DNA of 64,000 bases from a virus (IMGVR_UViG_3300021399_000006:14128-78127); one strand, 5' to 3'. Numbered from the stretch's first letter, positions 2,921 through 62,878 are shown. Notes: generated from the sequence alone by a model not told the origin. Numbers and translations: made by a program.

Positions 2921-3415
2921 TTACCAGTTCTGAGTTACTGTAAGATGACCACCGCATTTACATCTATATCTGTTAGGATACTTTACAACATTACCTGCTC
3001 TATGATAACGACCAACAATTTCTCCGCAAGAGGAACAAGTAACAATGTATTTATATGTGTCAGGGGTATAAGCGGCAACCTTGGTCTGTGTTGTATCAAA
3101 TGTACAATCAATACGTTTGCACATTTCTTTAAAGACTTTATCGTGTCCATGATTTTCATGGGTTTCTACGATAACGAGATAGTGCGCGCATTCGTGTTTG
3201 ATTACATCATCTATTGTTGCGGGGTCTCCTACTTCGAGAAGTTTGTAGCTAAACTCCATACTTTCGGGGGTAGTGTATCCACTGCAAGAGAAGAAAAGGA
3301 CTCTACCAAGTGTTCTGGTAAGTCTTTTGTTAATTTTTACAGGGATTGTAAAATCATAACCTGCGGATTTACAAATTTCTGTACAACGAGCGGTAAGGTC
3401 CTTTTCTGTCATCAT
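2921..3415 (-). CDS. SprT-like zinc metalloprotease (HECAHY) with C-terminal Cys4 zinc ribbon
   Basis: Track ORF of 164 aa. HExxH motif plus CSSCG...CKCGG. Confidence 0.6.
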   Translation of the reverse strand: MMTEKDLTARCTEICKSAGYDFTIPVKINKRLTRTLGRVLFFSCSGYTTPESMEFSYKLLEVGDPATIDDVIKHECAHYLVIVETHENHGHDKVFKEMCKRIDCTFDTTQTKVAAYTPDTYKYIVTCSSCGEIVGRYHRAGNVVKYPNRYRCKCGGHLTVTQNW

Positions 3416-3521: not shown

Positions 3522-4070
3522 TTATTCGTTAATAACTTCAATGCAACAAGATTTCATTACTTCAAGAGCAGCTTTATGATTTTCGGGGGTGGTTCCCGCA
3601 CAGCAAGATGCATCTACAATAATTTGAGTTTCAGGAAACAATGCTCTAAGAATAAGAACATTAGAAATAACGCAAATGTCTGTACATACTCCTGCTATTT
3701 CAATAGTAGTAGGTGGAAATCTTTTATAAGATATATCGGGGTCTATAAAAAATGTTTTCCAATTAAAATAACCAAAAGTTCCTTTTTCTATTGTTTTGCC
3801 AGCAAAAGGAAAGAGTTCATCAACAATGCACCATCCTGGAGTGCCTTTAATACAGTGGAGTGGAACTTTATTCATTTCAATTTTTTCTACTGGATTATCC
3901 CAATTCCATAAATAATGACTATCTTGCGTAAAAATAATTCTATCTGTCGATTGATTATATTCTTCTTTAATTTTAGCTTTTATTTTAGGTACAATTGCGC
4001 GGGCTTCAGGTGTTCCGAGAGGGCCAGTTACAAAATCATTCTGCATATCAATTACAATAAGTGCTTTCAT
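3522..4070 (-). CDS. Isochorismatase-family cysteine hydrolase (nicotinamidase-like)
   Basis: Track ORF of 182 aa. MKALIVIDMQNDF and GVCTDICV catalytic-Cys motif. Confidence 0.7.
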   Translation of the reverse strand: MKALIVIDMQNDFVTGPLGTPEARAIVPKIKAKIKEEYNQSTDRIIFTQDSHYLWNWDNPVEKIEMNKVPLHCIKGTPGWCIVDELFPFAGKTIEKGTFGYFNWKTFFIDPDISYKRFPPTTIEIAGVCTDICVISNVLILRALFPETQIIVDASCCAGTTPENHKAALEVMKSCCIEVINE

Positions 4071-10119: not shown

Positions 10120-10380
10120 TTAATCCTCAAGCAATCTTTCTGCTACACGTCTCCTCACAAATTTTATTGTATTATCAATCTCTTTTTCATTATAATAAAA
10201 GAAATCGTCAGCCTCATCGAGTCCATCAAAACAATCGCAGATAGCACTGTTGCAATCTTCTGTAATAACTCCAAGAACTTCATCAACGATTTCATTAATG
10301 TCAATATTAACATTAATAGAACTAATTACAAATGCCATTTTATACCTCCTTAAAACTCCTTGAAAACTTCCTTCTGACAA
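10120..10380 (-). CDS. hypothetical acidic protein
   Basis: Track ORF of 86 aa. Confidence 0.5.
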   Translation of the reverse strand: MSEGSFQGVLRRYKMAFVISSINVNIDINEIVDEVLGVITEDCNSAICDCFDGLDEADDFFYYNEKEIDNTIKFVRRRVAERLLED

Positions 10381-10559
10381 TCAGGACACAGACCAGAGAT
10401 AAAACGCTCGCGGTCAGTAGGCGACATGTGTGGAAAAGCATCCTGCACAAGTTCGCCAGACAGATAATTAAGATACTGTTCTAACTCAACAGTAAGAGTA
10501 TGATAAGTATTGCACATAGGACAAACAAAACCCATAGTAATAGGAACGAAAAATTTCAT
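10350..10559 (-). CDS. small Cys4 zinc-binding protein (CPMC...CPDC)
   Basis: Track ORF 10350..10604. Internal ATG ~10559 has an RBS GGGGG. Confidence 0.45.
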   Translation of the reverse strand: MKFFVPITMGFVCPMCNTYHTLTVELEQYLNYLSGELVQDAFPHMSPTDRERFISGLCPDCQKEVFKEF

Positions 10560-11919: not shown

Positions 11920-12321
11920 TTACTCTGCTTCACCGTCCGTAGGTTCAGCATCAGGGGCAACGAACTCGACCCCCTTGACAGCGTACAGAGTGCGCTTCTT
12001 ATAGACGTGTCTCTGTGCCTTGTCAGCCTTAATCAGCTGACCCAGGAGAGCACCCATCTTCTGCGGAGACAGGTCTGCCAGACGCTCATCTGCCATAATG
12101 TCAGCCATAGGGATGAACTCCTCTGCTTCCGTAAGAATCTCAAGGATGATACCCTTAAGGGTCTCATTCTGCTTCTGTGTCTTAGTCATACCGCTCTTAG
12201 AGCCACGCTTGTTCAGCTGTGCAATCAGAGCGTTCAGGCGTTCGATTGCTTCGGGATTAGTCTCGCCCAGAGCCTTGATACCATGGTTGATAGCTTCTAC
12301 GTAAGTCATAGTCTTAGTCAT
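11920..12321 (-). CDS. Family-A paralog 1 (133 aa, GC-rich), unknown function
   Basis: Track ORF. Paralogous to 15319..15723 and 17488..17853 (M..MTY.EAI.....A.G..N/H.EA.ERL.AL.AQL.KR...G.TKTQK). Confidence 0.6.
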   Translation of the reverse strand: MTKTMTYVEAINHGIKALGETNPEAIERLNALIAQLNKRGSKSGMTKTQKQNETLKGIILEILTEAEEFIPMADIMADERLADLSPQKMGALLGQLIKADKAQRHVYKKRTLYAVKGVEFVAPDAEPTDGEAE

Positions 12322-12878: not shown

Positions 12879-13067
12879 TTATCGTTTTATCATATTTAAA
12901 AGCTGATTAAATAAAGCGATATAGTCATCGTTATCTATAAATCTAATGGCTGTTTCTCCAAAAAATTTTTCAATAGTTTCGTCAATAGCGTCGGAAACAT
13001 CTTCCGCAAGAGTTTCCATATTAAAGTCAATTGAAAAAGTACATTTTTCTGCATCATAATTAAACAT
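12879..13067 (-). CDS. small acidic protein
   Basis: Track ORF of 62 aa. Three-gene acidic operon. Confidence 0.45.
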   Translation of the reverse strand: MFNYDAEKCTFSIDFNMETLAEDVSDAIDETIEKFFGETAIRFIDNDDYIALFNQLLNMIKR

Positions 13068-13070
13068 TTT

Positions 13071-13268
13071 TTATTCTCCTTTTTTAATTTTAGCTTCTTC
13101 AAGAACAGTATTAAGGAAAAAAGGGTAATCTTTATCAGAAATGCAGATTTCAGAATTTCCTATCCATCTATCAACAGCATCAATTACTTCATCTACAACC
13201 TGTTGAATATCAAAAACTTCAACAGTAGTAACTTTCATAAGACCATTATCTTTACAAAATTCAATCAT
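13071..13268 (-). CDS. small acidic protein
   Basis: Track ORF of 65 aa. Confidence 0.45.
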   Translation of the reverse strand: MIEFCKDNGLMKVTTVEVFDIQQVVDEVIDAVDRWIGNSEICISDKDYPFFLNTVLEEAKIKKGE

Positions 13269-13494
13269 TTTTTCTTTCTCCTTCTTCTGCTAAAGTTAAT
13301 ACATAATCGGCAACATCTATAATAAGATTATTATGATTTTCAATTATAGTAGAATGGTCTGCAATATCTAATTCATTAATACCCAATTCTTGATAAATCT
13401 CTTCTTCAATAAGATTAAGAATACGTTCTGCAATTACTTGAATGTCAATAGCAGATTTTTTAACAACAGTAACAGGAACAACTCTTGATTTCAT
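13261..13494 (-). CDS. small acidic protein
   Basis: Track ORF of 77 aa. Confidence 0.45.
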   Translation of the reverse strand: MKSRVVPVTVVKKSAIDIQVIAERILNLIEEEIYQELGINELDIADHSTIIENHNNLIIDVADYVLTLAEEGERKND

Positions 13495-13743
13495 TATCTA
13501 TCTCCTTTCTTTTGATAAGTCTATTATATCAGATTCCAAAAGAAAGTCAATACTTTTTAGGAAAAATATTTTTTATTTTTTCTTGCGGAAATTGCTTGAC
13601 AAAAAGCCTTACCTGTGATATACTTAAAAATTCGGCGCGCGCTGGAGTGGGACACGCAAGCGCGCGCCGTTCATAAATCTGAATTTCAAATTTATGTATA
13701 AAAAAATCCAGAAAGCTGAAATTCAGTTTTCTGGATAGTGGTT

Positions 13744-14188: not shown

Positions 14189-14884
14189 TCAAGTAGTAAA
14201 AAGCCGATATTCCATTTTTTTGTGCTGTCTAAAACAATGTGCCATGATTTTAGTCTCAATCAAAACATCCTCAAGCCCTGTGTGGGCTTCATCAAATGTG
14301 TTATTGCCTGAAATGTATCTGTAAAGAATTTCAGCAGTAAGACGAACACGAGGATTTTTGTGTTTTGTCATGTATTCATTTTTAATACACCATCTTTCAT
14401 AACTTTTCTGTTTTCCGATTGTCTGTCTTGCCATTTTCAAAGTATCCCAAATTTCCATTTTATAAGGGAAAAAGAAACGCTTTTTTGATTTATAGACCCA
14501 TCGGATAGTATTAGTCAGTGCTTTCCAATCAAAATGTGCGTTATGTGCGAAAATTGCCTTTACGCCAAATTCTTTTAAATCTTTCCAAAAGACATTATAC
14601 ATAGTCTGGAATCTAACAAGTTTCCGCTGTCCGCTTTTAACCTGTTCCCAATACATGGGAATTTTTTCAGCGTAATAGGCGGACGCCATAACGTCTTTCA
14701 TAGCTACAAAAACTTCATAAATCAGAAATGAACGAGTTTTATAAATCCGTCCCTGTTTGTCAGTGATAACCCAACCAATATCGTATACAAGAGACTGTGA
14801 TAAATCCAGTTTATCACCATCAAGCATAATGCCGTTACAAGTTTCAGTATCAAGCCCCATAAGGTATTTAATTCTTTTATCCAT
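14189..14884 (-). CDS. DEDDh 3'-5' exonuclease (DnaQ/RNase T-like)
   Basis: Track ORF 14189..14956. Start ATG 14884 (MDKRIKY) has RBS AAAGGAGA. Exo motifs GLDTETC, FAHNAHFDW, HTGLEDV. Confidence 0.7.
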   Translation of the reverse strand: MDKRIKYLMGLDTETCNGIMLDGDKLDLSQSLVYDIGWVITDKQGRIYKTRSFLIYEVFVAMKDVMASAYYAEKIPMYWEQVKSGQRKLVRFQTMYNVFWKDLKEFGVKAIFAHNAHFDWKALTNTIRWVYKSKKRFFFPYKMEIWDTLKMARQTIGKQKSYERWCIKNEYMTKHKNPRVRLTAEILYRYISGNNTFDEAHTGLEDVLIETKIMAHCFRQHKKMEYRLFTT

Positions 14885-15159
14885 TCTATCTCCTTTTGTG
14901 TGCTGTTCTTTGTTCCTTACAAGTATTATTATAAGGGATAGCAAGCGGAAAAGCAAGCAAAATTTTTAAAAAATTTGCACAAATTTCGGGATTTTATTTA
15001 ATTAAAATTTGTGCAGATTTTCACTTGACAAAAAGGTTGGCGGTATGGTATAATGGATTTTCCCCGCGGCCCGGAGGACCGCGGGGCGAGCAAAAAAAAT
15101 AGGGCCTGGAATATTCCAGGCCCACACACAGAAAGGAGGACAAATAAAAGTCAGTCAAG

Positions 15160-15232
15160 TGTGCCCGAAGGGACTTGAACCCTCGACCCTTTGATTAAAA
15201 GTCAAATGCTCTACCAACTGAGCTACGGGCAC
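15160..15232 (-). tRNA. tRNA-Lys (anticodon UUU), 73 nt, CCA not encoded
   Basis: Cloverleaf read by hand: acceptor GUGCCCG/CGGGCAC, D-arm GCUC-AGUUGGUA-GAGC, anticodon arm UUUGA-CUUUUAA-UCAAA, T-arm GAGGG-UUCAAGU-CCCUU. Confidence 0.75.
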
Positions 15233-15318: not shown

Positions 15319-15723
15319 TTAGGCGTCCTCGTCCTCTGCTACCTCGGCATCAGGAGCAACAAACTCCGTGCCTGCGATAGCGTACAGGGTGCGCTTTTTA
15401 TAGACCTTACGGACAACCTTTTCAGCCTTTACAAGCTGACCGAGCAGAGCACCCATTTTCTGGGTGGACATACCCTCGGGCAGGCGGTCATCTGCAAGCA
15501 GGTCTGCCATAGGGACGAAGTCCTCTACCTCTGCCAGAATATCAAGGATAACTGCCTTGATTTCCTCGTTGGCTTTCTGGGTCTTAGTCATACCACCCTT
15601 AGAGCTACGCTTTGCAAGCTGTGCAGTGAGAGCGTTCAGTCTCTCAACCGCTTCGGGATTGGTATCACCGAGAGCCTTGATTGCGAAATCGATTGCAGTT
15701 GCATAAGTCATAACGTTTGCCAT
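15319..15723 (-). CDS. Family-A paralog 2 (134 aa, GC-rich)
   Basis: Track ORF. Confidence 0.6.
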   Translation of the reverse strand: MANVMTYATAIDFAIKALGDTNPEAVERLNALTAQLAKRSSKGGMTKTQKANEEIKAVILDILAEVEDFVPMADLLADDRLPEGMSTQKMGALLGQLVKAEKVVRKVYKKRTLYAIAGTEFVAPDAEVAEDEDA

Positions 15724-16288: not shown

Positions 16289-16738
16289 TTAAGCAATCAG
16301 ACCAGACAGAAACGGGATAATATTCTGATTTGCGTCAATAGCGTCTCCGAGTGTCCAATCTTTTCTCACACGGTCATCATCATCAATCAAAATCTGAAAA
16401 CCACCGAGGTTTTTTGTACAGGTCTCTTTAACAGTTCCATATTCTACGATATGAAGTTCGTCATAAGGGAAATCATATTTCCGAAGCCAGTCAACTTTTG
16501 CCTGTTTGACTTTCGCATCATAGTTAGGAGTAGAATCTTTAGCAAGCCACGATGTAACGACAATTCGCCAACCGTCATTTTTAAGCACCCACAGGATAGC
16601 GGTCAGAAGCACCATATCATAAAGGGGTTTAGCTTTAATGTACGGTGTAGGGTCTTCCGCCCTAAGCATTTTCAGCCATCCTTTTACATTATAAGTATCA
16701 GCAAGAGTACCATCCATATCAAATACAAGAGTTTTCAT
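16289..16738 (-). CDS. HAD-superfamily hydrolase (5'(3')-deoxyribonucleotidase-like; FDMDGTL motif I)
   Basis: Track ORF of 149 aa. Confidence 0.6.
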   Translation of the reverse strand: MKTLVFDMDGTLADTYNVKGWLKMLRAEDPTPYIKAKPLYDMVLLTAILWVLKNDGWRIVVTSWLAKDSTPNYDAKVKQAKVDWLRKYDFPYDELHIVEYGTVKETCTKNLGGFQILIDDDDRVRKDWTLGDAIDANQNIIPFLSGLIA

Positions 16739-17060: not shown

Positions 17061-17243
17061 TTAAATTTCAAAAGTATCATTGCCGAACATTTCAACCATC
17101 TCATAAAATTCTTCTACAGAAGAACAATCAAAGGAAGCACCATTGATTTCTGCTACCTTTTCGCCGTAGGCTTCAAAGAAAATAGCGTTTTCAGTTTCAG
17201 CAAGAACAGTAAAAAATCTTTTAATATATTCTCTATGTGTCAT
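17061..17243 (-). CDS. small acidic protein
   Basis: Track ORF of 60 aa. Confidence 0.5.
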   Translation of the reverse strand: MTHREYIKRFFTVLAETENAIFFEAYGEKVAEINGASFDCSSVEEFYEMVEMFGNDTFEI

Positions 17244-17487: not shown

Positions 17488-17853
17488 TTATTCCTCTGCT
17501 ACCAGAGAGTAGACAACGTGCTTGTCAGCCTTGCCCTTTTCAACGATGCCATCCTTGACCATCTGACCAAGGAGTGCGCCCATCTTCTGGACAGACAGAC
17601 CATCAGGCAGGCGAGGGTCAGCAATCAGCTTCACCATGCCGACAGGCTCTTCGGCTTCGCCGAGGATTTCAGCAATCATTTTCTTGATTGCTACGTTTGC
17701 TTTCTGAGTCTTAGTCAGACCCTTAGAGCCAGAGTTGCGCTTCGCAAGCTGTGCCTGGAGTGCCTTGAGGCGGTCAACGGCTTCGGTATGGTCTGCGCCC
17801 ATAGCCTCGATAGCGATATTGATAGCTTCTGCATAAGTCATAACATTTGCCAT
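17488..17853 (-). CDS. Family-A paralog 3 (121 aa, GC-rich)
   Basis: Track ORF. RBS AAAGGAG. Confidence 0.6.
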   Translation of the reverse strand: MANVMTYAEAINIAIEAMGADHTEAVDRLKALQAQLAKRNSGSKGLTKTQKANVAIKKMIAEILGEAEEPVGMVKLIADPRLPDGLSVQKMGALLGQMVKDGIVEKGKADKHVVYSLVAEE

Positions 17854-18395: not shown

Positions 18396-19106
18396 AGTGA
18401 TATTCTCCTTTTCTGATGGTGATTATTAATTGAAATGCGTCCATCCTACCAGCCTAGGGGTTCCAGACGCTCCCCGTATGTTGCCTGCACATTTATATAC
18501 CGCAAAGTAGGACTTCGGCTTGCGGTGGTGGGTCTTTGTTAGGAAGACTTACTGCGACAACTTGGCGTCTTGGGTTCTTTCCCTTGCTTCCATCCCTCAC
18601 CTTATGTATTTATTATAGCACCTTTAGGTGGCTATGTCAATACCTTTTTTAAAAAATTTTTCAATCTTTGTGGTCCTGACCCGTGAGGTAGATTGAAAAC
18701 CCAGAGCGGTTTGTGTCGTGTCCTCGTCGCCATAGCACGGCTTTTTGTTTATTGAGGAGTTTGCTCTCCTCATTTGATGATTATATTCTATCATCTTTTT
18801 TATTATTTGTCAAGAGGAAATTTAAATTTTTTTAAATTCTTGCTTCGCTACCGTGTATCCACAAGCAGAAGACCCGAGGTCGGGAACATCTCCTGTCCTC
18901 TTGACAATTATTATTATAAGCGAAAACGGGCGGAAATGCAATAGGTAATATTATACAAATTTCGGGATCAAAAAAGATTGTTATTTGTATAATTTTCCTC
19001 TTGACAAAAAGCTGACGGGTGTGATATAATGATTTTTCCGCGCGCCCCGATGGTGCGCGCGGCAAGCAAAAAAAATAAGGGGATAGTAAACCCTATCCCC
19101 TTATTC

Positions 19107-19310
19107 TTAGCAATCATAGGTGTAGCATCCCTCGTAAGGGTCGAATCCGCATTCATCTACATCGGGTTCATCGTCCCAGTCATACTCCTCATCCTCGTAC
19201 TCTTCCTCATACTCAGATTCATCAACAGAACAGTAGGTTGCACAAGTGCATCCATATTCTGCCTCGTAGGGGCAATTTCCAAAGTCACAAGGGGTTTCCG
19301 CTCTCAGCAT
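19107..19310 (-). CDS. highly acidic Cys-containing small protein (67 aa; candidate DNA mimic/anti-defence)
   Basis: Track ORF. More than 35% D/E. Followed by a strong terminator. Confidence 0.5.
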   Translation of the reverse strand: MLRAETPCDFGNCPYEAEYGCTCATYCSVDESEYEEEYEDEEYDWDDEPDVDECGFDPYEGCYTYDC

Positions 19311-19337
19311 ATCTTTATCTCCTTTCCTATTGTTGGA

Positions 19338-19526
19338 TTAAATTGCTTTAGGACGTTTCCGAGGATGTACACGACCTGTTTTAATAGCTTCCGCCATGAA
19401 CTTTTCCTTGGCTTCGACTTCATCAGGGGGAGCGATTGTAACCAAAGTTACAAATCTTTCAGGTGCATACAGATTTTCAATATCCTTGTAAGTAAAAAGA
19501 CCGCCACCATAAACAACTTTTCTCAT
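19338..19526 (-). CDS. hypothetical protein
   Basis: Track ORF of 62 aa. Confidence 0.45.
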   Translation of the reverse strand: MRKVVYGGGLFTYKDIENLYAPERFVTLVTIAPPDEVEAKEKFMAEAIKTGRVHPRKRPKAI

Positions 19527-19592
19527 AGTATTTTCTCCTTTTGTGTAATGTTTTCTCTTGATGATTATATTATATCATAGTTTAGGAAAAAG

Positions 19593-19775
19593 TCAATACA
19601 TAATGTAAAGTTTTTTTCCATCTTTTGATTTCCACATTTCCAGACCCTTGCTGTTAAAGCCGAGGAAAATAACAGGGACGTTTAAAACATAAATAGGCTC
19701 AACCTTAATGTCAGGATTAAGACCAAATTTTTCGATGACAGTTCTCAATTCTTTATCAGACATAAGTTTTCTCAT
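19593..19775 (-). CDS. small protein (60 aa) with tandem structured leader (19780-19960)
   Basis: Part of track ORF 19593..19907. ATG at ~19775. Confidence 0.4.
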   Translation of the reverse strand: MRKLMSDKELRTVIEKFGLNPDIKVEPIYVLNVPVIFLGFNSKGLEMWKSKDGKKLYIMY

Positions 19776-20150
19776 TTTTATCACCTCGTTTTGTATTATT
19801 TTGTCGTATAGGGGATACCGCTGGTTCGTGTAGGCGGCAGATACCAAATCCCCTATAATAGAGAGCCACAGGTCTGTATGTGGATACCGCATCTCTATGG
19901 GGAGCACCGCTGGTTCGTATAGGCGGCAGATACCTGAACCTCATCTTGGTTCGCTCCCCCTTGACAATTATTATTATAAGCGATAGACCAAAAAAATGCA
20001 ATAGATAAAATGCACAAATTTCAGGATGGATCTTTGTGCATTTTTTTTGAAAAAATGCTTGACAAAAAGGTGGCAGGTATGGTATAATGGAACTTCGGCC
20101 CGCGGCGATGAGAAGCAAACCGCCGCGGGCCGGCCAAAAGATGAGGAGTT

Positions 20151-20342
20151 TTACTCCTCATCCTCATCATCCCATCCGTCATCTCTAAGAGCAAGTTCTT
20201 TCAGGCCGGCAAGCTGTTCATCAGTCATCTGGGGATTGAGTTCAACCTCAATGCAGAACCAGATTGTAATCTTATCTTCAAAACCAAGGGTTCTCATAAC
20301 TTCATCCATTGCTTCGTTATTTCTTTTGGTGTAATTTGTCAT
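20151..20342 (-). CDS. small acidic protein (63 aa; C-terminal DDGWDDEDEE)
   Basis: Track ORF. Confidence 0.5.
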   Translation of the reverse strand: MTNYTKRNNEAMDEVMRTLGFEDKITIWFCIEVELNPQMTDEQLAGLKELALRDDGWDDEDEE

Positions 20343-20823
20343 TTTTTTATCCCCTTTCTTTTGATGATTATATTATATCAAAATTTTTCTTTTTTGTCAA
20401 CCGTCAGAAATCAATTTTTTTATATTTCTGACGGTTGTAATCCTTTTTGGATTTGTGTGTGCGGATTCCTGTATTGAAGGGGACAAGCACACGTTTCTGT
20501 GCGTTTTTTGCTTTCCGCACTTTTTTATTTTCGTTTGTCATTTTATCACCCCCTTTTTTTTCTTTTTTAACTATAAATTCTACAAAATAATCCTTCTTGA
20601 TTAAACTCAAAACTAATGTTTTCTCCAGACATAGGATTTTCATATTCTAAATTATATTCATCCTCGTAAACAAGTTGCTGTCCTGTAATTTCCATCATAT
20701 TTTTAATTTGTTCTTTTGTCATATTTTTTATTTTCCTTCCATTCGATTGATTATTTGTTTTCCTTTAACTGTATTTATTATATCAAAGGGTTTGGCTTTT
20801 GTCAAGCCCTTTTTTCATTTTTT

Positions 20824-21123
20824 TTAAATTTTATTATATCCTGCTCTCATGTGCTCAATAGCAAGATTGATAATGTCCTGCGGAGCTTCGTTTTCTGCGT
20901 AGTACCGTCTAATCTGATTCGGTCTTGCGATAAGAATGGTAATCATAATACCTGTCCGCTTGTTGTAGATTACTACCAATCCGGTTGTAGTAATCTTATG
21001 GACTTCGGGTCCATTCTTATGACCACGGTCTACAGTGACTTCCTTTACAACCTGCCCCATTCCGATCTGGGCGATAATCTGGCTACGTCTCTGGCGGTCG
21101 GCTCTCCAATGCTTGCTGTTCAT
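20824..21123 (-). CDS. hypothetical basic protein
   Basis: Track ORF of 99 aa. Confidence 0.5.
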   Translation of the reverse strand: MNSKHWRADRQRRSQIIAQIGMGQVVKEVTVDRGHKNGPEVHKITTTGLVVIYNKRTGIMITILIARPNQIRRYYAENEAPQDIINLAIEHMRAGYNKI

Positions 21124-21333
21124 GTCGTATCTCCTTTCCTTTATCTTATGTATACATTATACCCCATGAGAGCGGCCATGTCAAGTAAAATATTGCACAA
21201 AATTTCAGGAATTTTGTGCCTGATCTTTGTGCACTTTTCCGATATTGATTTTTTCTAGCGGTTGTGGTATAATGATTCCCGGCCCGGCCTGGCAAGGGAC
21301 GGCCAGCCGCGCGCCGCGCAAAAAGGACGAGGA

Positions 21334-21438
21334 TTAATCCTCGTCCTCGCCATTGAACTCTTCAAGAGTTACACCACACTCTGCAAGCAGTTCCTCAAGA
21401 GTTGCACCATAGTTCATCATTTCGTTAAGAGTAGTCAT
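21334..21438 (-). CDS. tiny acidic peptide (34 aa)
   Basis: Manual ORF with its own TTGACA-17-TATAAT promoter and RBS. Confidence 0.3.
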   Translation of the reverse strand: MTTLNEMMNYGATLEELLAECGVTLEEFNGEDED

Positions 21439-21539
21439 TTTGTACCACCTTTCTTTTGTATGTTTGTTTTCCTTTAACTATATTTATTATATCTTAAAGG
21501 GGTTGTTTTGTCAACCCCTTTTTTTATTTTATTTTTTGA

Positions 21540-21700
21540 GGAGATTTCCACTCCTCTCTCTTGGATGGCTTTGATTGTAGCGTAAGCACTTTGGGGAACT
21601 TAATCTCCAGTTACCTCACCCCGAAACTCGGACCATCAGAGTTTAAAACCGAGCGCTTGGTAGCTAAGGAATCGAACCTTAGTAGAACCGTTCTACCTTT
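21540..21700 (-). ncRNA. ORF-free cassette slot, candidate small RNA carrying a tRNA-like T-arm (GGUUCGAUUCC)
   Basis: Bounded by standard cassette promoter/terminator motifs. No ORF of 30 aa or more even with TAG read as sense. Confidence 0.3.
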
Positions 21701-21757
21701 CCTTTGATGATTATATATTATCATATTTGTTGACTTTTGTCAACCCCTTTTTTTATT

Positions 21758-21919: not shown

Positions 21920-22012
21920 TTTGTACCACCTTTCTTTGATCGGTTTGTTTCATTTCTTGATTATATTATATCAAAGGGGTTGAGGTTTGTCAACCCCTTT
22001 TTTAAAATTTTT

Positions 22013-22168
22013 TTAATCCCAAAAACCAGACCAAACAGAAAACCCTTGTTCATTTACTATTACGTGATCGAAATAGCCATTATCATATTTTTCCATATAA
22101 TCCAGGCAGTCGGCATAAGACCCCTCAAAAACAATTAATTCATCTTCGTTGCGTTCAACTCGATACAT
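22013..22168 (-). CDS. small acidic protein (51 aa)
   Basis: Manual ORF. Confidence 0.35.
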   Translation of the reverse strand: MYRVERNEDELIVFEGSYADCLDYMEKYDNGYFDHVIVNEQGFSVWSGFWD

Positions 22169-22266
22169 TTTAAATCTCCTTTTCATTTGATTGGGTTTTG
22201 TTTTCCTTTAACTGTATTTATTATATCAAAGGACTTGGCTTTTGTCAAGCCCTTTTTTAAAATTTT

Positions 22267-22446
22267 TTAGCACTCCCACGGTCCATCAGGGAAAAATGTT
22301 ACACAATTAAGGTCGTCATCCCATCCGCAAGAAAGAACATAGTTCTGCCACTGTCCAGACATAGCATCAATTTCTTTTTCCATTTTATCCATCATGTCTG
22401 CATCAATAGTAACGACTGCATCTAAAAACCATACATAACCTTTCAT
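22267..22446 (-). CDS. small acidic protein (59 aa)
   Basis: Manual ORF. Confidence 0.35.
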   Translation of the reverse strand: MKGYVWFLDAVVTIDADMMDKMEKEIDAMSGQWQNYVLSCGWDDDLNCVTFFPDGPWEC

Positions 22447-23022
22447 TTTATACCACCTTTCTTTTGTGCTTTTGTTTTCCTTTGATGATTATATTATATC
22501 AAAGGGCTTGGCTTTTGTCAAGCCCTTTTTTGATTTTTTTAAAATCTTTCTTTTAAAGCAAAACCCTTTTCATTACGAATAGCAATGTAGTCATAAGGAA
22601 ATTTTTTACAGGCTTTTTCAAAAACTTTTTCCGCTTCTTTCATAGTTGCTACTTTAAAACCGTAACGGAGAAAACCTACTGTGATGTGGAACATTTTGTA
22701 CCCCTTTCTTTGGATCGATTATTGTTTTCCTTTGATGATATAAGTATATCACACTATAGAAAAAAGTCAATAGATTTTTAAATAAAATATTGTACAAAAA
22801 AAGGATTAAAATAAAATAAATAATTATGCACTTTTCCCTCTTGACAACTGGCTGTCACATGTGATATAATGTTTCGGCCTGCAGCGGCCGCTTCCGCAGG
22901 CTTTGGAAAGAATGTTAAATTATTAACAATCGATCTTCTTTTGTACGATCGATTGTTAATAATACGCTTTGTTATAATATAATAAAAGCCTTATTAGTTT
23001 TATACTAATAAGGCTTTTATTT

Positions 23023-23265: not shown

Positions 23266-23614
23266 TACTTTTTTTAATTTTCAGACTATTTTTTTAATTT
23301 TCAGATAACTTTAAAATCTTCGTTTTTAAAGGGTTTACTTTGATCTTTTAACGTGTTAAAGTGTGTTATTTTTTTAACAAACAATAGCATTTTAGGAATG
23401 AAAAAATTTTTTAAAATTTTTTCATTTTTCCTCTTGACAAACTGGTTCTATGTGTGGTATAATTGTTCGGCCTGCAACGGCCGCTGGTGCTGACTAACAC
23501 AATAGAGTTTGTTTGTTAATTAACAAACAAACTCTATTACTTTAACGTATTAAAGAACATTGTTAAAACCTTAACAATCAATCTACTATGTTAGATTGAT
23601 AATAGTTTAACAAT

Positions 23615-23690
<76 letters not shown>

Positions 23691-24413: not shown

Positions 24414-24890
24414 TTAAGTTTTCAAATATAATATATTATAATAATCTAAAGCATCTACTTCTTCCATAAAAAAATGAATCCCAGGAGCACATATAAACAG
24501 TCTATTATCACAAAAATCTTTTACAGAAACTTCTTCTCCAACCTTATAAACAAAAGTAGAGTCATATATAGAATGAGCCTCTTTCAACTCTCCAGTAAAA
24601 TTTCTTATTTCTAATACTTTAGCTTTATCACATCTACATTTCTTACTATCTAATCCGCTAGTTCTTTTTGCATCTTCAGGAATTTCTAATTTTATTAAAG
24701 CATAATGATTTGATTCATCAACAGCACATTTCCAACCTATAAAACTCCCAGTTGCGGGACAGGCTAAAGGCGGAAATGGAATTTCTGCTTCTTCTTCCTT
24801 TTTCTTAAAAAAAGGATATAAAGCGGCAGTTATACATGCACTAAAAAAAATAAAACTAACAATCACTATTATAAAACTAAGAATTTTCAT
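24414..24890 (-). CDS. secreted/membrane-anchored Cys-rich protein
   Basis: Track ORF of 158 aa. N-terminal hydrophobic segment. Confidence 0.5.
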   Translation of the reverse strand: MKILSFIIVIVSFIFFSACITAALYPFFKKKEEEAEIPFPPLACPATGSFIGWKCAVDESNHYALIKLEIPEDAKRTSGLDSKKCRCDKAKVLEIRNFTGELKEAHSIYDSTFVYKVGEEVSVKDFCDNRLFICAPGIHFFMEEVDALDYYNILYLKT

Positions 24891-25193: not shown

Positions 25194-26129
25194 TTATTCC
25201 TTATCCCTCATGTCAACAATAGGAGTCGCGCCACCTGTAATTTGTGGCATTGCGCCATTCCAAGTCTTATAATAAATATACTCATTATATTCATCAGTCA
25301 GCGCGCCAGAAATCACCTTAATAGCTTCAGCCTCCGCTCTAGATTCAGTCTCCCTTGCGGCGGCAGCACCTTCCGCCTTAATCTTAGCCTTTTCTGCTTC
25401 AATTGCGGCAGCTTCCTTCTCTTTTTCCGCATTAATAAGCGCAACCGCCTTATCACGTTCCGCGTTCACCTTATCGGTTTCCGCAGTCACCTTCGCTGTT
25501 TCAAGTTCCTCTTGCGCCTTAATCTTTTTCTTAATAGCCTTATCGGTATCTTCATCAGGGCGGACATCAGTCAAAGAAACGCTATCAATAATAATACCAT
25601 ATTTATCAAATCTTTTCTGCATTTCTTCAGAGATGGCGGTATTCACGGTTCCTCTCTCTTTACTAACAATTTCAATCATACCATAGCGAGGAGTAATTTC
25701 CTTTATCCAACCTTGCATATTTGGTTTAATGAAACTATCAAGAATCTCTTTACCATCCTGTCCTCTAAATCTACTAAATGTTTCAGGCAAACGATTAATA
25801 TCAAAAGTATAACCGAAAGCAACATCTACTTCGAGAGATGCGCCTTCCTTAGTGGGAACCTCAAAACTTTCATCATCTTCAGAGTCTCCACGCGAATCCT
25901 TTGACATGTATGACTGTTCTCTTGCAATAGTATATTTAGTTACAGTTTTAGTGGGTGAAAGGAATTTCCAACCTTGCGTCAATACCTTCTCTTCAAGGCC
26001 ACCATTCATATTATAAACAATACCTGCGTAACCTGCGGGAATCTTGGTCGAAAATAATATAAAACCAAAGACTATCAATACCAAAACAACACCAATAGCA
26101 ACTCCGCCAACTTTTCCATTTTTTCTCAT
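25194..26129 (-). CDS. SPFH/band-7 (stomatin/prohibitin/HflK-C-like) membrane protein with Ala/Glu/Lys-rich coiled-coil tail
   Basis: Track ORF of 311 aa. N-terminal TM helix, SPFH core, EAEKAKIKAEGAAAARE repeats. Confidence 0.65.
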   Translation of the reverse strand: MRKNGKVGGVAIGVVLVLIVFGFILFSTKIPAGYAGIVYNMNGGLEEKVLTQGWKFLSPTKTVTKYTIAREQSYMSKDSRGDSEDDESFEVPTKEGASLEVDVAFGYTFDINRLPETFSRFRGQDGKEILDSFIKPNMQGWIKEITPRYGMIEIVSKERGTVNTAISEEMQKRFDKYGIIIDSVSLTDVRPDEDTDKAIKKKIKAQEELETAKVTAETDKVNAERDKAVALINAEKEKEAAAIEAEKAKIKAEGAAAARETESRAEAEAIKVISGALTDEYNEYIYYKTWNGAMPQITGGATPIVDMRDKE

Positions 26130-45772: not shown

Positions 45773-45860
45773 ATAATTTAATTTTAATCGCTCTCTTTGT
45801 ATATTATTACAAAGAGAGCGATTTTTTTATTTTATTTGAAAACAAAGGAGGAGATAATTA

Positions 45861-48800
45861 ATGGCTCAACAAGGAGGAAGAATAGATTTTTAGGTAGGTT
45901 TTAAAGCCGATAAATCTGGAATCAATGATATTAAAAAGAGTCTGCAAGATTTACAAAGAATAAAAATAGCAAATTTTGACGGGCCACAAGAAGATTTAAA
46001 AAGAATAAAAAATACTGCAAAATAGGTACAAAGTGCGTTAACGAAGGCTTTTAATCCAAATTTAAATACTATAAACTTAAAAACTTTCAATAGTTCATTA
46101 AAAGAATCTGATTTAACAATAAATAAAATATATTCAGATTTTTCTCAGGCTGGAGCACAGGGGCAGGTAGCATTTAATAAAATGGCAACCTCTGTGTTAA
46201 CAACAAATCAGTCTTTAAAACAAACAGAAAATATTGTTACTAAATTAGGATAGACTTTTGTTAATACTATAAAATGGAATATTGCTTCTAGTGCTATTAA
46301 TACTTTTACAAGCGGAGTTCAAAATGCTTTTACTTACGTTTAGCATTTATAGAAATCTTTAACTAATATTAGAATTGTTACTGGCGATTCTCAGCAAAAA
46401 ATGGAAGAGTTTGCGGCATCTGCTAATCGTGCTGCTCAAGAATTAGGACGTAGCACTATGGATTATACCAAAGCCGCCCTTACTTTCTATCAACAGGGTT
46501 TAAATGATGAAGATGTTCAAGCTAGAACTGAAGCCGTTTTAAAAGCACAAAATATTACTGGCGCTGGTTCATAGATGGCAGATTATTTAACTTCTGTATG
46601 GAATGGTTATAAAGTTGCTAATGAATAGGCGTAGGTTTATGTTGATAAACTTGCCGCAGTTGCAGATACTAGTGCATCTGATATGAGTTAGTTAGCTATT
46701 GGTATGTCTAAAGTTGCATCTACCGCTAATACAATGGGTGTGGATATAGACCAATTAAATGCTCAATTAGCTACTGTTATTGCTACAACAAGGCAAGCTC
46801 CAGAAGCTGTCGGTACTGCATTTAAAACCATATACACTCGTATGAATGATATTAAAACTGGATCAGATGAAGCTGAAATCAGTTTAGGAAATTATTCTGG
46901 TAAAATGGCAGAGTTAGGTTTTAATGTTCTTGATGCTACAGGCCATTTAAGAGACACAGGATAGGTTATGTAGGAGATAGGTAGCCGCTGGGAAGATTTA
47001 ACAAGAGAACAACAAGTTTATTTGGCTACTACGATGGGTGGTCAAAGACAGGTTAACCAGTTAATGGCTCTATTTGACAACTGGACTACATATAGTGAAT
47101 TATTAAATACATCCCTTGAATCTGAAGGTACTCTTGCACAGAAAAATTCTGTTTATCTTGAATCTCTTGGGGCTAAGATGGAGCAATTAGGTGCCGCAGG
47201 AGAAAAAGTAAAAGATAACTTAGTTGACAGTTAGAGTTTTGGTAAATTTATAGATATATTAACAAAAGGGACAGATTTATTAGGAACTTTTGTTGAATCT
47301 ATTGATGGTGGCGGTTCAGCTCTACTTGGATTAGGTGGTATTGCAACACAGGTCTTTAGCGGTACAATCGCTAAGGAAATTAATAAAATAGTTGTTAATT
47401 TTCAAAATATGAAATTTAATATGGATCAAGTAAATTAGCAACTAAGATTAATTGAAGATTTTGGTAATTCTCAAGGTTATCAGCAAGGCGCCATTGATGA
47501 AATGTTAAATGTAAAACGTCAGATGATAGATTATAGCGCTGTAATGACGGAATAGGATAATAGAGAATATAATGCTATTGTTAAAAAAATTGGTGCTGAA
47601 CAACAATATATATTATAGTTACAAGATAAAATTGAAAAAGGTAAAGAATATAATGAAATAATTCAACAAGCTGTTTTAGAAAATCAGAAAAATGGAATAG
47701 AAACTTCTTTCAATGATGTTCAAATGGAATTACAACAAAGTATTGAAGATATAACAAAATCTTTATCTGATTTTCGTGGTGCAATGGCATCTGGTTTAGA
47801 AAAAGATAATTTTACAACAGGTCTTATTACAGAATTTGAAATTGTAAATAGTTATTTAAATAATAAATTACCAGAAGGTTTTAATAAAACTTACGAAGAA
47901 TTAACAAAAGAGCGTGATAGATTATTAAAAGAATCAGAGAATATTATAACAGAAGATGTTTCTCGTATAAACCAAAGAATTATCAATCTAATAAAAACTG
48001 CTGTAGGTAGTATTTCGGAAAATTTTAATTTTAGTTTAGATGTAAAAACAAATACAGCAGAAATTGAATTAGCAAGAGATAGAATACAAGAATTAAAGGG
48101 GGATGCTCTTCAATTATAGCAATCTTTAAAACAAGCATTATCTATAAAAGGCGGAGTAGAGGTTGTAGGTGCCTTAGGATCTATGTCTTCTGCAATTTTA
48201 TCTATGCAAAAAGGATTAAGTAGTCTTACTGATGAAAATCTTTCTCCTTTAGAAAAAATGCAAAAAGTATTGATGAGCATAGGATATTCTCTTCCTATGC
48301 TAATAACTAGCTATCAAAAATTATCAACCTGGACTAAGACTTTTACAGGTGCTATAACAAAAGCTATGACTATTCAATAGCAAAAAATGGCTATTGAAAA
48401 AGCAGAAGAAGCATTAAATAAAGCTAAAATAGCAAGAGAGTAGGCAGAAATTGCTTTAAAAAATAAAAATAATGCTTTATTAGTGGTAGAAAATAATTTA
48501 CAATAGAAAGATGTTTCAAGTGCAATGAAATTAGCTGGGGCTAAGCTAAAAGTAAAATAGGCTACAGAGGCGGCGGCCACAGCAAAAGAAAAATAGGCTT
48601 TAGCTACTAAAGAGTTAGAAAGTGCACAGACAAAGTTAAATTTATCTACTAATCTTTTTTCTAAAATAGGTATTGTAGCAGCTATCGTTGCAGTTGTATT
48701 AGTTGCTAAAAAATTATATGAAGTATATAATCAAGATGCAATCGCCGCTTAGAGGGCGGCAAAAGCTGCACAAGAAACAAAGAAGACTTATGATGATTTA

Positions 48801-54800: not shown

Positions 54801-54803
54801 TAA
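45861..54803 (+). CDS. tail tape measure protein, 2,980 aa, TAG-recoded (about 100 in-frame TAG)
   Basis: Ten track ORFs (46704 to 53666) all share frame 0 with ATG 45861 (RBS AGGAGGAG). No TAA/TGA until 54801-03. TP901-type core motifs. GGGGGGGRGKKGRGGKGKKG segment. Confidence 0.8.
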
Positions 54804-61552: not shown

Positions 61553-61592
61553 GGGAAACGATAAAATAAATCGTTTCCCTTTTTTCTTTTTA
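61553..61592. terminator. bidirectional Rho-independent terminator between convergent late genes
   Basis: AAAAAAAAGGGAAACGAU-AAAAUAA-AUCGUUUCCCUUUUUUCUUUUU. Confidence 0.7.
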
Positions 61593-62072
61593 AAAAGCAC
61601 TTTTATGCTATTTAATATAAGCTATTCCTAAACATATGGCATCGCTTATATCATCATTAACATCTATATTATAAATCATTTTAACTAAACGCTTACTATT
61701 AGCTTTTAAAGTATCTCGTCTTATCCCTGGTCCAGTTTGTATTCCACATAATCTTCGCCAATGCCCAGATACATATAAATCTACTTTATAATTTAAAATA
61801 CCTAATTTTGTAACAGTTTCTCCTTGAAGATATATTAATGCTTTATATACTGCTTGGTTTTGTTTAACATCCTATGGTAAAATTTCTTCCATTACAATAT
61901 TTGTAGGCTTATATTTTTTACATATTTCTACAATTCTATTACTCATACTTTCGATTCTTTTATATACGTTTCGATCATTCTATATTAAACATTCATAATG
62001 TATTAATTTGCCCTACTAAAATATTGCAATTCCGCTAGATTTAGTAGAGGCATCTATCGCTAAAGTTTTCAT
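61593..62072 (-). CDS. ruvC: RuvC-like Holliday junction resolvase (159 aa; TAG-recoded)
   Basis: MKTLAIDASTKSSGIAIF start. RBS GGAGG. Three in-frame TAG. Confidence 0.6.
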
Positions 62073-62175
62073 CGTTGAATCTACCTCCTTTAATCTAACT
62101 TGAGTATATCAAAAAATTTTAAAAAAGTCAAATAAAAAATGGGAATAGGTAAAACCTATTCCCATTTAATTTATA

Positions 62176-62622: not shown

Positions 62623-62878
62623 CAGCTACATCTTCCTCCGCGCAATAAATAGGCATTAACTCACAATCAGGTTCTTTCTCTTGACAAAATTCTTTAGTAA
62701 TAATAACTCGTCTCCATTCATCAATAATTTCACCTTTTTGCTTTTGTGTTTTAATTTCATTGCTAGTTTTTATGACAGTATATTGAGGATTTGTTTTAGC
62801 CTATTGAATAAGTTTTGTTGCTTCTGACTATGAATCACAACGGTACTGCTAAGTAACTTTAATTAAATATCTGCTCAT
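62615..62878 (-). CDS. hypothetical protein (87 aa; TAG-recoded)
   Basis: Manual ORF. RBS AAAGGAGA. Stop overlaps the dut start. Confidence 0.4.

Follow-up and report, generated by a model that had tools for sequence, protein, structure and literature searches.

Inhibitors of restriction enzymes, CRISPR, RNA polymerase, HU and RecBCD are known among the small acidic proteins made early in phage infection. Such inhibitors have normally been found singly, because they have no sequence in common. T7 Ocr, ArdA, T4 Arn, T7 gp5.9, phi29 p56, PBS2 Ugi and AcrIIA4 are all small, early and very acidic, and the folded DNA mimics carry carboxylates placed like those of the DNA backbone. Acidic segments of another kind are found at the end of SSB (…DDDIPF-COOH) and of T7 gp2.5 and gp4, where a disordered acidic linker leads to a conserved aromatic tip that docks via the free C-terminus; the SSB-type tail also competes with DNA for basic surfaces. 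Eukaryotic viruses are also known to use short linear motifs (e.g., LxCxE or C-terminal PDZ-binding peptides), in which one peptide is placed on unrelated viral proteins to engage one conserved host domain. To our knowledge, a family-wide, single-copy, portable C-terminal module has not been documented for phages.

The host-takeover module of SPO1 combines many small early genes with very strong sigma-A promoters. Its products include Gp46, an HU inhibitor (PMC8892312), Gp53, a ClpCP adaptor (PMC6873191), and Gp44, in which a small folded N-domain is joined to a disordered segment of 57% D/E without basic residues that mimics ssDNA and binds RNA polymerase (PMC8208478). The PeSL cassettes of T4-type phages (PMC2839356, PMC4122927) are repeated units of early promoter and hairpin on either side of tiny orphan genes, which they shuffle within a hyperplastic early region.

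The DNA analyzed here is a window of 64,000 nucleotides, numbered from its first letter, of a phage of roughly 130 kb which reads TAG as a sense codon, as shown by recoding in its late genes. Its terminase falls into the SPbeta / Geobacillus E3 / Enterococcus H1 / phAss-1 group, outside Herelleviridae, and terminase and exonuclease together identify phAss-1, Enterococcus phage H1 and Geobacillus virus E3 as its kin (PMC10607447). The phage probably infects a Clostridia species of the gut or rumen. The interval considered in this study (19107-21438) is part of an early, host-takeover-type region (9-24 kb), in which 20 perfect 12/12 TTGACA/TATAAT promoters were found within 15 kb, and in which 93 promoter-like sites were observed versus 49 +/- 6 in shuffled sequences. 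This region is a run of small cassettes, each consisting of a consensus sigma-A promoter, a hairpin across its -35 element and then one or two tiny genes, all of which have a Shine-Dalgarno site. The promoter/leader repeats form three families (D1, D2 and D4) of 10-13 copies. Cassette contents change fast between relatives, the flanks being kept while the cassettes get replaced.

Dense small early genes with strong host-type promoters and ribosome-binding sites in a large Firmicutes phage are what is seen in the SPO1 module, to whose gp37-gp60 no PHROG match was found. The locus also resembles the PeSL system, in that a repeated promoter and stem-loop accompany variable orphan genes and that cassettes are exchanged between close relatives with break-points within conserved flanks. 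However, the hairpin here spans the -35 element itself and would terminate opposite-strand transcription only, and the host is Gram-positive. Moreover, one junction of recombination falls within the coding sequence of an acidic linker, implying that a protein tail is shuffled besides whole genes. A megablast search with 6 kb of this DNA against 50,697 phage records gave no match, and neither did the non-coding stretches against Rfam, at the gathering threshold or at E <= 5.

The original prediction saw in the interval a cluster of tiny, extremely acidic proteins, each with an independent strong promoter and terminator, and listed further acidic proteins nearby. All of the named ORFs are present on the minus strand, each with a Shine-Dalgarno site. 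Strongly acidic proteins (D/E >= 20% and D/E minus K/R >= 10%) account for 11 of the 26 early minus-strand proteins of 90 aa or less (~40%), versus 9.8% expected from random 60-aa windows of the late proteins of the same phage (binomial P-value = 1.5e-5). The interval is acidic in part only, since it also encodes four basic proteins which alternate with the acidic ones on the same strand: a 62-aa protein (19338..19526, pI 9.6); a protein of about 60 aa (19593..19775) preceded by the promoter TTGCAT-17-TATAAT (20001..19973) and a structured leader of 190 nt (19776-19968); a very basic 45-aa protein (20404-20541, pI 10.7); and a 99-aa protein (20824..21123, pI 10.3) with its own promoter (21184..21156), which is kept in 11 related loci.

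Besides the 67-aa protein described below, the interval contains three acidic genes, all on the minus strand. A 63-aa protein (20151..20342, 29% D/E) ends in DDGWDDEDEE, as had been noted, and is preceded by a perfect TTGACA-17-TGnTATAAT promoter (20372..20400). A 51-aa orphan protein (20567..20722) is co-transcribed with the 45-aa basic protein from a promoter at 20805..20777. A 34-aa protein (21334..21438, 29% D/E), which ends in EEFNGEDED and has a 79% identical homologue in locus L008, follows a perfect consensus promoter (21486..21514). The acidic proteins listed outside the interval all have a pI of 4.1-4.5, although the first has a better start and occupies 10120-10338 rather than extending to 10380. 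They comprise an operon of three genes for proteins of 77, 65 and 62 aa (12879..13494, minus strand; ORFs at 12879-13067, 13071-13268 and 13261-13494) with one promoter (13550..13523), a 60-aa protein (17061..17243, minus strand) behind a promoter with a weak -35 element, and two minus-strand genes, 22013-22168 and 22267-22446 (22013..22446), with perfect promoters at 22248..22220 and 22521..22493.

An independent strong promoter holds for part of this set. Perfect 12/12 promoters precede 20151, 20567, 21334, 22013 and 22267. In the interval, three of the four acidic genes thus follow a perfect TTGACA-17-TATAAT promoter of their own, the exception being the 67-aa gene. Likewise, clear intrinsic terminators follow 19107 (19108..19071) and 21334, whereas the hairpins within the cassette promoters have a terminator score for the opposite (+) strand only. 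Most of the small acidic genes lack a homologue even in relatives whose exonuclease is 66-88% identical. In the three-gene operon only 12879-13067 has one (L018, 76%); the 17061 protein is 90% identical in L001; 22267-22446 has a single weak match in the related loci (L099, 38% identity), and 22013-22168 has no homologue there. BLAST comparison of the proteins starting at 10120, 12879, 13071 and 13261 detected no paralogy, and their alignment shows a weak common pattern only. The view that the small acidic genes are real early accessory genes, fast-evolving and, by sequence criteria, strongly expressed, is supported by these data, and their profile fits host-takeover or counter-defence genes.

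The 67-aa gene (19107..19310, minus strand, TAA stop) is the second gene of a two-gene operon behind 19338-19526 and is driven by the promoter TTGACT-16-TGnTATAAT (19569..19596, minus strand). Its product had been described as more than 35% Asp/Glu; we obtained 36% D/E, with a net charge of -23 and eight Cys, and the stretch quoted for it, EYEEEYEDEEYDWDDEPDVDE, is correct. The protein consists of a four-Cys knuckle (residues 1-28), an acidic/aromatic linker (residues 29-52; VDESEYEEEYEDEEYDWDDEPDVD, 19155..19226), which appears disordered, and a C-terminal peptide (residues 53-67; ECGFDPYEGCYTYDC, 19110..19154) followed by TAA. An intrinsic terminator with a 16-bp stem and T8 (19071..19108, minus strand) is kept in the related loci L018-L020. 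These loci have, in the same genomic slot, a protein with another N-terminal part and the same tail, the linker being the swap point; frameshifting as the source of the variable N-terminus was ruled out by DNA alignment. In the closest relative, L001, the tail gene is missing at this slot and the contig is not among the pattern matches, indicating that the tail function is dispensable or replaceable.

The C-terminal peptide belongs to a family which we defined by an acidic linker, the pattern [DE]-x-G-[FY]-[DN]-P-Y-x-G-x-[YF]-x-x-D-C and an immediately following stop codon. The same tail is common to 106 word-indexed matches. An exhaustive HMM profile search of 1.84 billion representatives revealed 176 clusters at 50% identity, whose representatives have 46-150 aa and whose match nearly always ends at the last residue. 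The consensus, E-Φ-G-F-D-P-Y-x-G-C-Y-T-x-D-C-COOH, is almost invariant over its 15 residues (numbered -14 to 0), the invariant positions being 98-100% conserved among 367 unique proteins. Members share a three-part build of a variable N-terminal carrier, a disordered linker of ~25 residues (on average 46% D/E, 12% F/W/Y and 1.8% K/R) and the C-terminal peptide. Judged from these sequences, the tail family is real and is selected at the protein level. Conservation of the tail as DNA, whether as antisense target, recombination site or part of a terminator, was rejected, since the 126 distinct DNA versions use every synonymous codon at the invariant positions and the downstream DNA is unrelated between loci.

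The tail was found on 115 IMG/VR contigs, with exactly one match on each (115 in total). Among the GTDB species genomes, it occurs on 31 contigs of uncultured gut/rumen assemblies (MAGs) and in none of the isolate genomes. A tblastn search with the 67-aa protein and a 22-aa tail against 50,697 cultured phage records gave no match, to which low-complexity filtering may contribute; with a less acidic carrier-plus-tail query, the carrier part alone was matched in these records. Tail motif strings gave no match in a full-text literature search, and a cluster look-up returned no names for the NCBI-sourced members. Thus, the family is large and undescribed, being present in no database or text searched.

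After removal of the tail, the carriers fall into 115 BLAST-level clusters, i.e., about 115 unrelated proteins, among which is an HD-domain protein. Near-carrierless forms of 33-50 aa contain little beyond linker and tail. Relatives of carriers also exist without the tail in the window. One is the zinc-ribbon domain of a 69-aa protein (10350..10559, minus strand; phrog_20898), which in 12 other phages bears the tail. The 63-aa protein is related to the commonest carrier and the 34-aa protein to the carriers of P0286 and P0156, and neither has the tail. The tail is evidently portable between carriers. In contrast to the SSB and T7 tails, it is longer (15 residues), ends in Cys, has G/P/Y invariants and occurs on its many unrelated carriers, which show neither an OB fold nor a terminal D-D-[IL]-P-F-COOH tip. 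Gp44 of SPO1 shares the combination of a small folded N-domain and a disordered acidic segment, but it has neither an invariant C-terminal anchor peptide nor carrier swapping. The tail also exceeds the typical length of the linear motifs of eukaryotic viruses.

The leading hypothesis, to which we assign a probability of about 40%, is that this tail is a portable polyanionic docking/competitor peptide directed against a conserved host protein early in infection, as suggested by its composition, its architecture and the analogies given above. The active unit would be linker plus tail, made immediately after infection. The polyanionic, aromatic-studded linker may occupy a basic nucleic-acid-binding surface, while the C-terminal peptide, probably a small beta-hairpin with a free Cys carboxylate end, would anchor in a specific pocket of the host protein and thereby block or redirect it. 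Position -10 covaries with position -3 (D pairs with T/S in 200 cases and N with D in 30, against 4 exceptions), which is what cross-strand neighbours in a hairpin should show. The carrier would be interchangeable and may mainly let the acidic segment be translated and stay stable. D/E-rich nascent chains abort translation when they are N-terminal (bioRxiv 10.1101/2021.02.02.429294), which would explain why a carrier is needed.

For the tail to occur on contigs of 33-75% G+C, its partner must be either a host protein of very high conservation or a product of the phage itself. A more specific proposal, tentative and with the odds somewhat against it, is that phages of gut/rumen Clostridia and some phages of high-G+C hosts each carry exactly one portable effector of ~40 residues, made up of the polyanionic disordered linker and an invariant 15-residue hairpin at the C-terminus, which can be joined to almost any small protein and disables or hijacks one universally conserved host hub. 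Such a hub could be RNA polymerase, a protein acting on single-stranded DNA or in recombination, or the thiol-dependent system of nucleotide reduction. If so, this would be the first family-wide host-targeting module of the linear-motif type described in bacteriophages. The disorder-plus-anchor build familiar from eukaryotic viruses may be common in phages. Several hundred small acidic early proteins of uncultured gut/rumen phages can be recognized by one 15-residue signature. A synthetic peptide, or a minimal gene of ~40 residues, would allow a direct test of their function, and the tail offers a handle for target finding by pull-down or co-folding. It is also a natural example of a transferable tag, compatible with more than 100 fusion partners. 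Should its target be a housekeeping protein conserved in Clostridia, the peptide might in addition serve as a research tool or as a starting point for a narrow inhibitor.

The original prediction favored DNA mimics or other anti-restriction and anti-CRISPR proteins. As a general account of the acidic proteins, folded DNA mimics or dedicated inhibitors of R-M, CRISPR or Abi systems, like Ocr, ArdA and AcrIIA4, are unlikely, though they are the best of the alternatives. The proteins are small, acidic, early and strongly expressed by the criteria used above, and they turn over quickly. Their D/E content (29-36%) is comparable with that of Ocr (29%). Precedents include Ocr itself, TifA (21% acidic; PMC11322646), SPO1 Gp46 (PMC8892312) and Gp44 (PMC8208478). 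Homology to structural proteins, named in the original prediction as grounds against it, was not found. However, none of the acidic proteins has a significant match in Pfam, PHROGs or NCBIfam, including the Ocr/ArdA-type families, and the family profile has no match among PDB sequences at E <= 10. AlphaFold2 predicts full disorder for the 67-aa protein (pLDDT 52, pTM 0.11), which argues against a folded mimic of the Ocr type. For the 63-aa protein, it predicts a generic three-helix bundle (residues 3-52) with a disordered acidic stub (RDDGWDDEDEE). Foldseek searches with this model gave best E-values of 1.2 (PDB) and 0.93 (BFVD), all neighbors being generic three-helix bundles and none a DNA mimic. 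Judged by model confidence and structural neighbors, a stable fold with a DNA-like array of carboxylates is not supported. In addition, a peptide that is invariant across so wide a range of G+C is more easily reconciled with a conserved housekeeping target than with a defence system, which varies. The idea of charge mimicry survives in another, disordered form, since a nucleic-acid-like polyanionic linker anchored by the peptide is still a plausible mechanism.

Slightly less probable, and likewise unlikely, is a redox-active or metal-binding arm, with the tail serving as an electron shuttle, a trap for thiol enzymes (thioredoxin or an NrdH-dependent reductase) or a metal chelator. The flexible acidic arm ends in C-x4-C (Cys at -5 in 89% and at 0 in 99% of tails), often with a third Cys at -13 and with several Asp, Glu and Tyr residues, and many carriers are themselves Cys-rich knuckles or ribbons. 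The C-terminal tails of ribonucleotide reductases lend support to this idea: in class I and II enzymes a C-x4-C is found on a flexible C-terminal arm, and the beta subunits of class Ib have acidic peptides with Trp at their ends. A redox or metal role in fact accounts for the cysteines no less well than docking does. On the other hand, about 11% of tails have G, A, E, D or Y in place of Cys -5, and in 46% Cys -13 is replaced. Conservation of the G, F, D, P, Y, G, Y and D residues equals or exceeds that of the cysteines. The exhaustive profile search found the peptide in phage-type proteins only and in no cellular protein, and no thioredoxin or reductase gene was observed near the tail genes.

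Docking of the tail to a phage-encoded partner, which would bring small domains to a replication, transcription or regulatory complex of the phage, is improbable to a somewhat greater degree. About half of the tail loci have common early genes, encoding a DEDD exonuclease (51), a HAD nucleotidase (46), a multi-copy family of ~120-134 aa (52) and a 129-aa protein (36), and the HD phosphohydrolase among the carriers could be a domain so recruited. However, the other half lack these neighbors within the available DNA, the G+C span is wide, the co-occurring proteins are not basic, and the carrierless forms would have nothing to recruit. With regard to a RiPP or signal precursor, no radical-SAM, YcaO or lanthipeptide enzyme was found among the window proteins or the recurrent neighbors, and the N-termini are hydrophilic.

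We consider a cis-acting C-terminus quite improbable, whether as a nascent peptide with a regulatory role, which would arrest or destabilize the ribosome on reaching the stop codon, or as a tag for degradation; in either case the product itself would have no target. Tail and linker together (~40 residues) match the length of the ribosomal exit tunnel, the N-terminus would be irrelevant, ribosomes are destabilized by D/E-P-rich sequences, and the terminator stem of the 67-aa gene begins within its stop codon. Yet all three stop codons are in use, and the downstream contexts of 127 distinct tail-gene loci are mixed (24 terminator, 34 adjacent gene, 14 promoter and 55 other), with no regulatory target or downstream gene conserved. 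Least probable of all is that most of the orphan acidic ORFs are non-functional and owe their acidity to A+G-rich inter-promoter sequence: among 135 related loci, seven of the acidic ORFs lack homologues or show a single weak one, but all have a Shine-Dalgarno site (at 5-9 nt) and lie either behind a consensus promoter or in an operon, those with homologues are conserved at the amino-acid level, and the enrichment over late-protein windows is significant.

A uracil-DNA phage in need of an Ugi-like inhibitor is unlikely here, given the gene at 62176-62655, which we take from its motif to be dUTPase-like. Long plus-strand ORFs that could be read from antisense promoters (e.g., 19029-19580) were judged to be spurious, being antisense to GAN-rich coding sequence and giving F/I/L-rich translations. 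One opposite-strand unit (19001..19062, plus strand), a consensus promoter (19001..19030) with a GC hairpin at the 5' end of the transcript, fires into the 3' end of the 67-aa gene, and nine more copies of it are present, the next at 20059-20132.

The original prediction described the interval 19107-21438 as a cluster of tiny acidic proteins, each with its own promoter and terminator. All of the ORFs it named are present, each with a Shine-Dalgarno site; the alternative would be that the acidic ORFs are non-genes. The 67-aa protein (19107-19310, minus strand) contains 36% D/E and has a net charge of -23, and the 63-aa (20151-20342, minus) and 34-aa (21334-21438, minus) proteins each contain 29% D/E. 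Acidity is indeed enriched: among the 26 early proteins no longer than 90 aa, 11 passed a strict criterion, compared with 9.8% of random 60-aa windows from late proteins of the same phage (p = 1.5e-5). The cluster is not exclusively acidic, however, since four basic proteins also lie within the interval. Strong promoters are present in the region (20 perfect TTGACA-17/18-TATAAT sites), but the 67-aa gene lacks one of its own and lies downstream of 19338-19526 (promoter 19596..19569), and the three genes in a row at 12879-13494, taken for independent units, form a single operon.

It was also proposed that these proteins are candidate inhibitors of host defence, for example DNA mimics. Pfam, PHROGs, and NCBIfam scans of every acidic protein gave no match, and AF2 (31-sequence alignment) predicted disorder for the 67-aa protein (pLDDT 52, pTM 0.11), leaving a folded DNA mimic directed against defence without structural or sequence support. 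The 63-aa protein has 38 close homologs of 54-73 aa (mostly 60-64 aa), all unnamed, which share the ending LALRDD[GE]WD[DE]E. In its AF2 model, residues 3-52 form three helices (pLDDT 84) and the acidic stub is disordered; Foldseek found only generic three-helix bundles (E > 0.9). Most other acidic ORFs had no homolog among 135 related loci, whereas the exonuclease, the HAD nucleotidase, a 129-aa protein, and a multi-copy family of ~120-134 aa are widely conserved; the acidic genes are therefore accessory genes with fast turnover.

A tblastn search of the relatives matched no more of the 67-aa protein than its final ~30 residues, in proteins whose N-termini are quite unlike its own. A search of 5.8 billion proteins yielded 106 proteins of 47-116 aa, nearly all ending in …(E)PDVDECGFDPYEGCYTYDC, with 15 BLAST-distinct N-terminal parts. 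This word-indexed search is biased to identical tails; an exhaustive profile search and a degenerate DNA pattern are free of that bias. The former, covering 1.84 billion representatives, gave 176 matches at E <= 1e-3, all of 46-150 aa, and the match reached the last residue in nearly all of them. Four tail-family proteins extend further, with Q at the usual stop in P0103, P0220, and P0225, probably a TAG stop taken as Gln by the gene caller, and other residues in P0184. The back-translated pattern matched 115 sites in IMG/VR, on 115 different contigs (up to 240 kb, 33-75% G+C); "one per genome" is a count on contigs with a strict pattern. Across 185,579 species genomes, the same pattern matched only 31 times, always on contigs of uncultured gut or rumen assemblies (MAGs), mostly labeled Clostridia. 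The tail was not found in cultured phages, the family has no match in Pfam, PHROGs, NCBIfam, or PDB, and its motif strings are absent from the 8 million full texts searched. The tail is confined to phage-type small proteins and is portable and single-copy per contig. Small acidic early effectors are a known kind; what is new here is a C-terminal module that is transferable and shared across a whole family.

The consensus derived from 367 unique proteins reads, from position -14 to the last residue (position 0), E/D (98%), C or M (54% and 19%), G (100%), F/Y (99%), D/N (99%), P (99%), Y (99%), a variable residue, G (100%), C (89%), Y/F (98%), T (81%), a variable residue, D (99%), and C (99%). 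The 25 residues preceding this motif form a linker with, on average, 46% D/E, 12% F/W/Y, and 1.8% K/R. The coupling between positions -10 and -3 is almost perfect: of 234 distinct tails, 200 pair D with T/S, 30 pair N with D, and 4 are exceptions. Part of this coupling could stem from common ancestry within a subfamily. If the tail formed a beta-hairpin turning at -7/-6, these positions would be cross-strand neighbors and -13 would lie opposite the terminal Cys.

Conservation of the tail is at the protein level rather than the DNA level and reflects strong purifying selection: among 126 distinct DNA versions of 13 tail codons, all four Gly and Pro codons and both codons for F, D, Y, and C are used, and the DNA 3' of the stop is unrelated from locus to locus. 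Another explanation is that the tail is a cis-regulatory or degradation tag. The unrelated downstream DNA, together with its mixed contexts (a terminator at 24, an adjacent gene at 34, a promoter at 14, and something else at 55 of 127 distinct loci), speaks against a peptide that acts in cis by arrest or attenuation.

Grouped at BLAST level after removal of the tail, the N-terminal parts, or carriers, form 115 clusters, of which 84 are singletons. They include several Cys-rich knuckles and ribbons, small alpha/beta domains, helical bundles, and an HD phosphohydrolase, and seven proteins keep <20 residues after linker removal, that is, they are essentially linker plus tail. The HD carrier is a 215-aa protein on two IMG/VR contigs (L024 and L130, 126 and 201 kb); at L013-L015, the HD protein is separate and is encoded one or two genes downstream of the tail gene. 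In the close relatives L018-L020, the orthologous slot holds a 58-aa protein with another N-terminal part and an identical tail; the DNA alignment retains the upstream flank (a ribosome-binding site with ATGCTGAGA) and the downstream flank (the last ~80 nt and the terminator), while the middle is exchanged, with the junction within the acidic linker. The tail gene is absent from this slot in L001, the closest relative. Carriers also occur without the tail. The zinc ribbon at 10350-10559 lacks it and matches tail-bearing ribbons (pairwise E = 6e-18; 12 matches), and in cultured phages this ribbon is widespread with the tail never attached. Since the 63-aa protein matched 21 tail-stripped carriers (best E = 4.5e-5) and the 34-aa protein two (best E = 1.9e-6), three of the four acidic proteins of the interval belong to the tail-family repertoire, only one of them bearing the tail, which matches the one-per-contig rule.

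The genes carry early-type expression signals. We infer that the active unit is the linker plus tail, in which the polyanionic linker would compete for a basic, nucleic-acid-binding surface and the specific C-terminal peptide would anchor it in a conserved host protein. One rival possibility is that the tail docks on a partner encoded by the phage; another, suggested by the terminal C-x4-C, is a redox or metal-binding arm. SPO1 Gp44 consists of a small folded N-domain and a disordered region with 57% D/E, a mimic of single-stranded DNA that binds the beta and beta' subunits of RNA polymerase (PMC8208478). This protein is the nearest precedent for the proposed linker mechanism. The acidic tails of SSB and T7 gp2.5 are further analogies. 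Nascent chains rich in D/E and Pro near the N-terminus abort translation unless a tunnel-spanning peptide precedes them (bioRxiv 10.1101/2021.02.02.429294), which provides a rationale for an interchangeable carrier.

In its genomic setting the region is similar to the SPO1 host-takeover module, and in cassette structure to the PeSL modules of T4-type phages (PMC2839356, PMC4122927), with homology to neither. Minus-strand promoters and leaders form repeat families of 10-13 copies. The individual terminators claimed for these genes held only in part, as hairpins embedded in cassette promoters score as terminators for the plus strand only. In five cassettes (20777-20812, 21486-21521, 21965-21993, 22220-22251, and 22493-22528), the -35 hexamer lies in the loop and stem of a 10-12 bp hairpin (AAAGGGCTTGACAAAAGCCAAGCCCTTT) that is a good intrinsic terminator for the opposite strand only. 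Ten plus-strand promoters (12784, 15025, 16016, 17369, 18121, 19001, 20059, 21245, 22841, and 23434), mostly perfect TTGACA-18-TGnTATAAT, are directed against the early genes. Their predicted transcripts begin with a G+C hairpin of 10-15 bp that differs in sequence from one to the next, followed by an A-run and the complement of the early terminator, and run antisense into the 3' end of the early gene (fold z -3.5 to -6.9); they may be stable antisense RNAs that shut off early genes. The related loci L002 and L004 have the same layout behind the tail gene. A microsatellite of ~25 ATT repeats (23595-23687, repeat family D12) lies between early cassettes.

A conserved structured RNA of ~175 nt (18420-18610, minus) has its own consensus promoter (18640..18612). 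Its sequence identity is 97-98% in L001 and L018-L020, 88-89% in L002, L004, and L099, and 77% in L006, exceeding the conservation of neighboring proteins, and seven sequences show compensatory changes in seven predicted pairs; Rfam gave no match at E <= 5. A second promoter-driven stretch (21545-21712, minus; promoter 21743..21715), without a convincing ORF and 79-82% identical in L001, has two hairpins at its start, of which the second looks like a tRNA T-arm (TAAGG-TTCGATT-CCTTA); neither ARAGORN nor Rfam gave a match. A structured 190-nt leader (19776-19968, minus) precedes a ~60-aa gene and contains two similar hairpins, each with the identical 12-nt loop CUAYACGAACCA (fold z = -2.4); it is 89% identical in L001 and partial in L003, L004, L019, and L020.

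Few long ORFs are found on the plus strand at 30-62 kb under the standard code, but reading TAG as a sense codon gives contiguous ORFs, e.g., 45858-54803 (2,981 aa). Late genes (28972-61546, plus; 1-2173, minus) are readable only in this way, with 6-21 in-frame TAGs in each of seven late ORFs checked, whereas the small early genes (9-24 kb, minus) stop at TAA or TGA and can be read with the standard code. No suppressor tRNA was found within the window, whose sole tRNA is tRNA-Lys(UUU) (15159-15232, minus). In other phages, TAG is the stop codon of six tail genes. With TAG translated as Gln, the terminase shares 72% identity with a human-gut contig and 42-46% with Enterococcus phage H1/VRE9, Geobacillus virus E3, and phage phAss-1; SPbeta-type YonF is a more distant relative. 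The DEDD exonuclease (14189-14884) again matched Enterococcus phages and phAss-1, but not Geobacillus E3. TAG-recoded gut phages are a described group with phAss-1 as the type (PMC10607447). The early region is common to twelve IMG/VR relatives of 111-181 kb, and the host is assigned from co-binned metagenome contigs together with the type of promoter and ribosome-binding site.

The commonest neighbor of tail genes is a multi-copy family (104 proteins, 52 loci) with no match in Pfam or PHROG, represented here by three paralogs of 121-134 aa, 50-67% identical (11920-12321, 15319-15723, and 17488-17853, minus), each followed by a bidirectional promoter/hairpin module. Inverted repeats TGCACAAA…TTTGTGCA between divergent promoters could be operators. 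A nucleotide-metabolism set (14189-14884, 16289-16738, 62176-62655, and 61590-62108, minus) includes the DEDD-type exonuclease and a HAD-type 5'-nucleotidase-like protein (a faint NT5C match, on a homolog), both conserved in 61-65 related loci, as well as putative dUTPase-like and RuvC-like ORFs recognized by motif only. Other minus-strand genes encode SPFH/Band 7 (25194-26129), DUF5758 (24414-24890), SprT-like metalloprotease (2921-3415), and isochorismatase-family (3522-4070) proteins.
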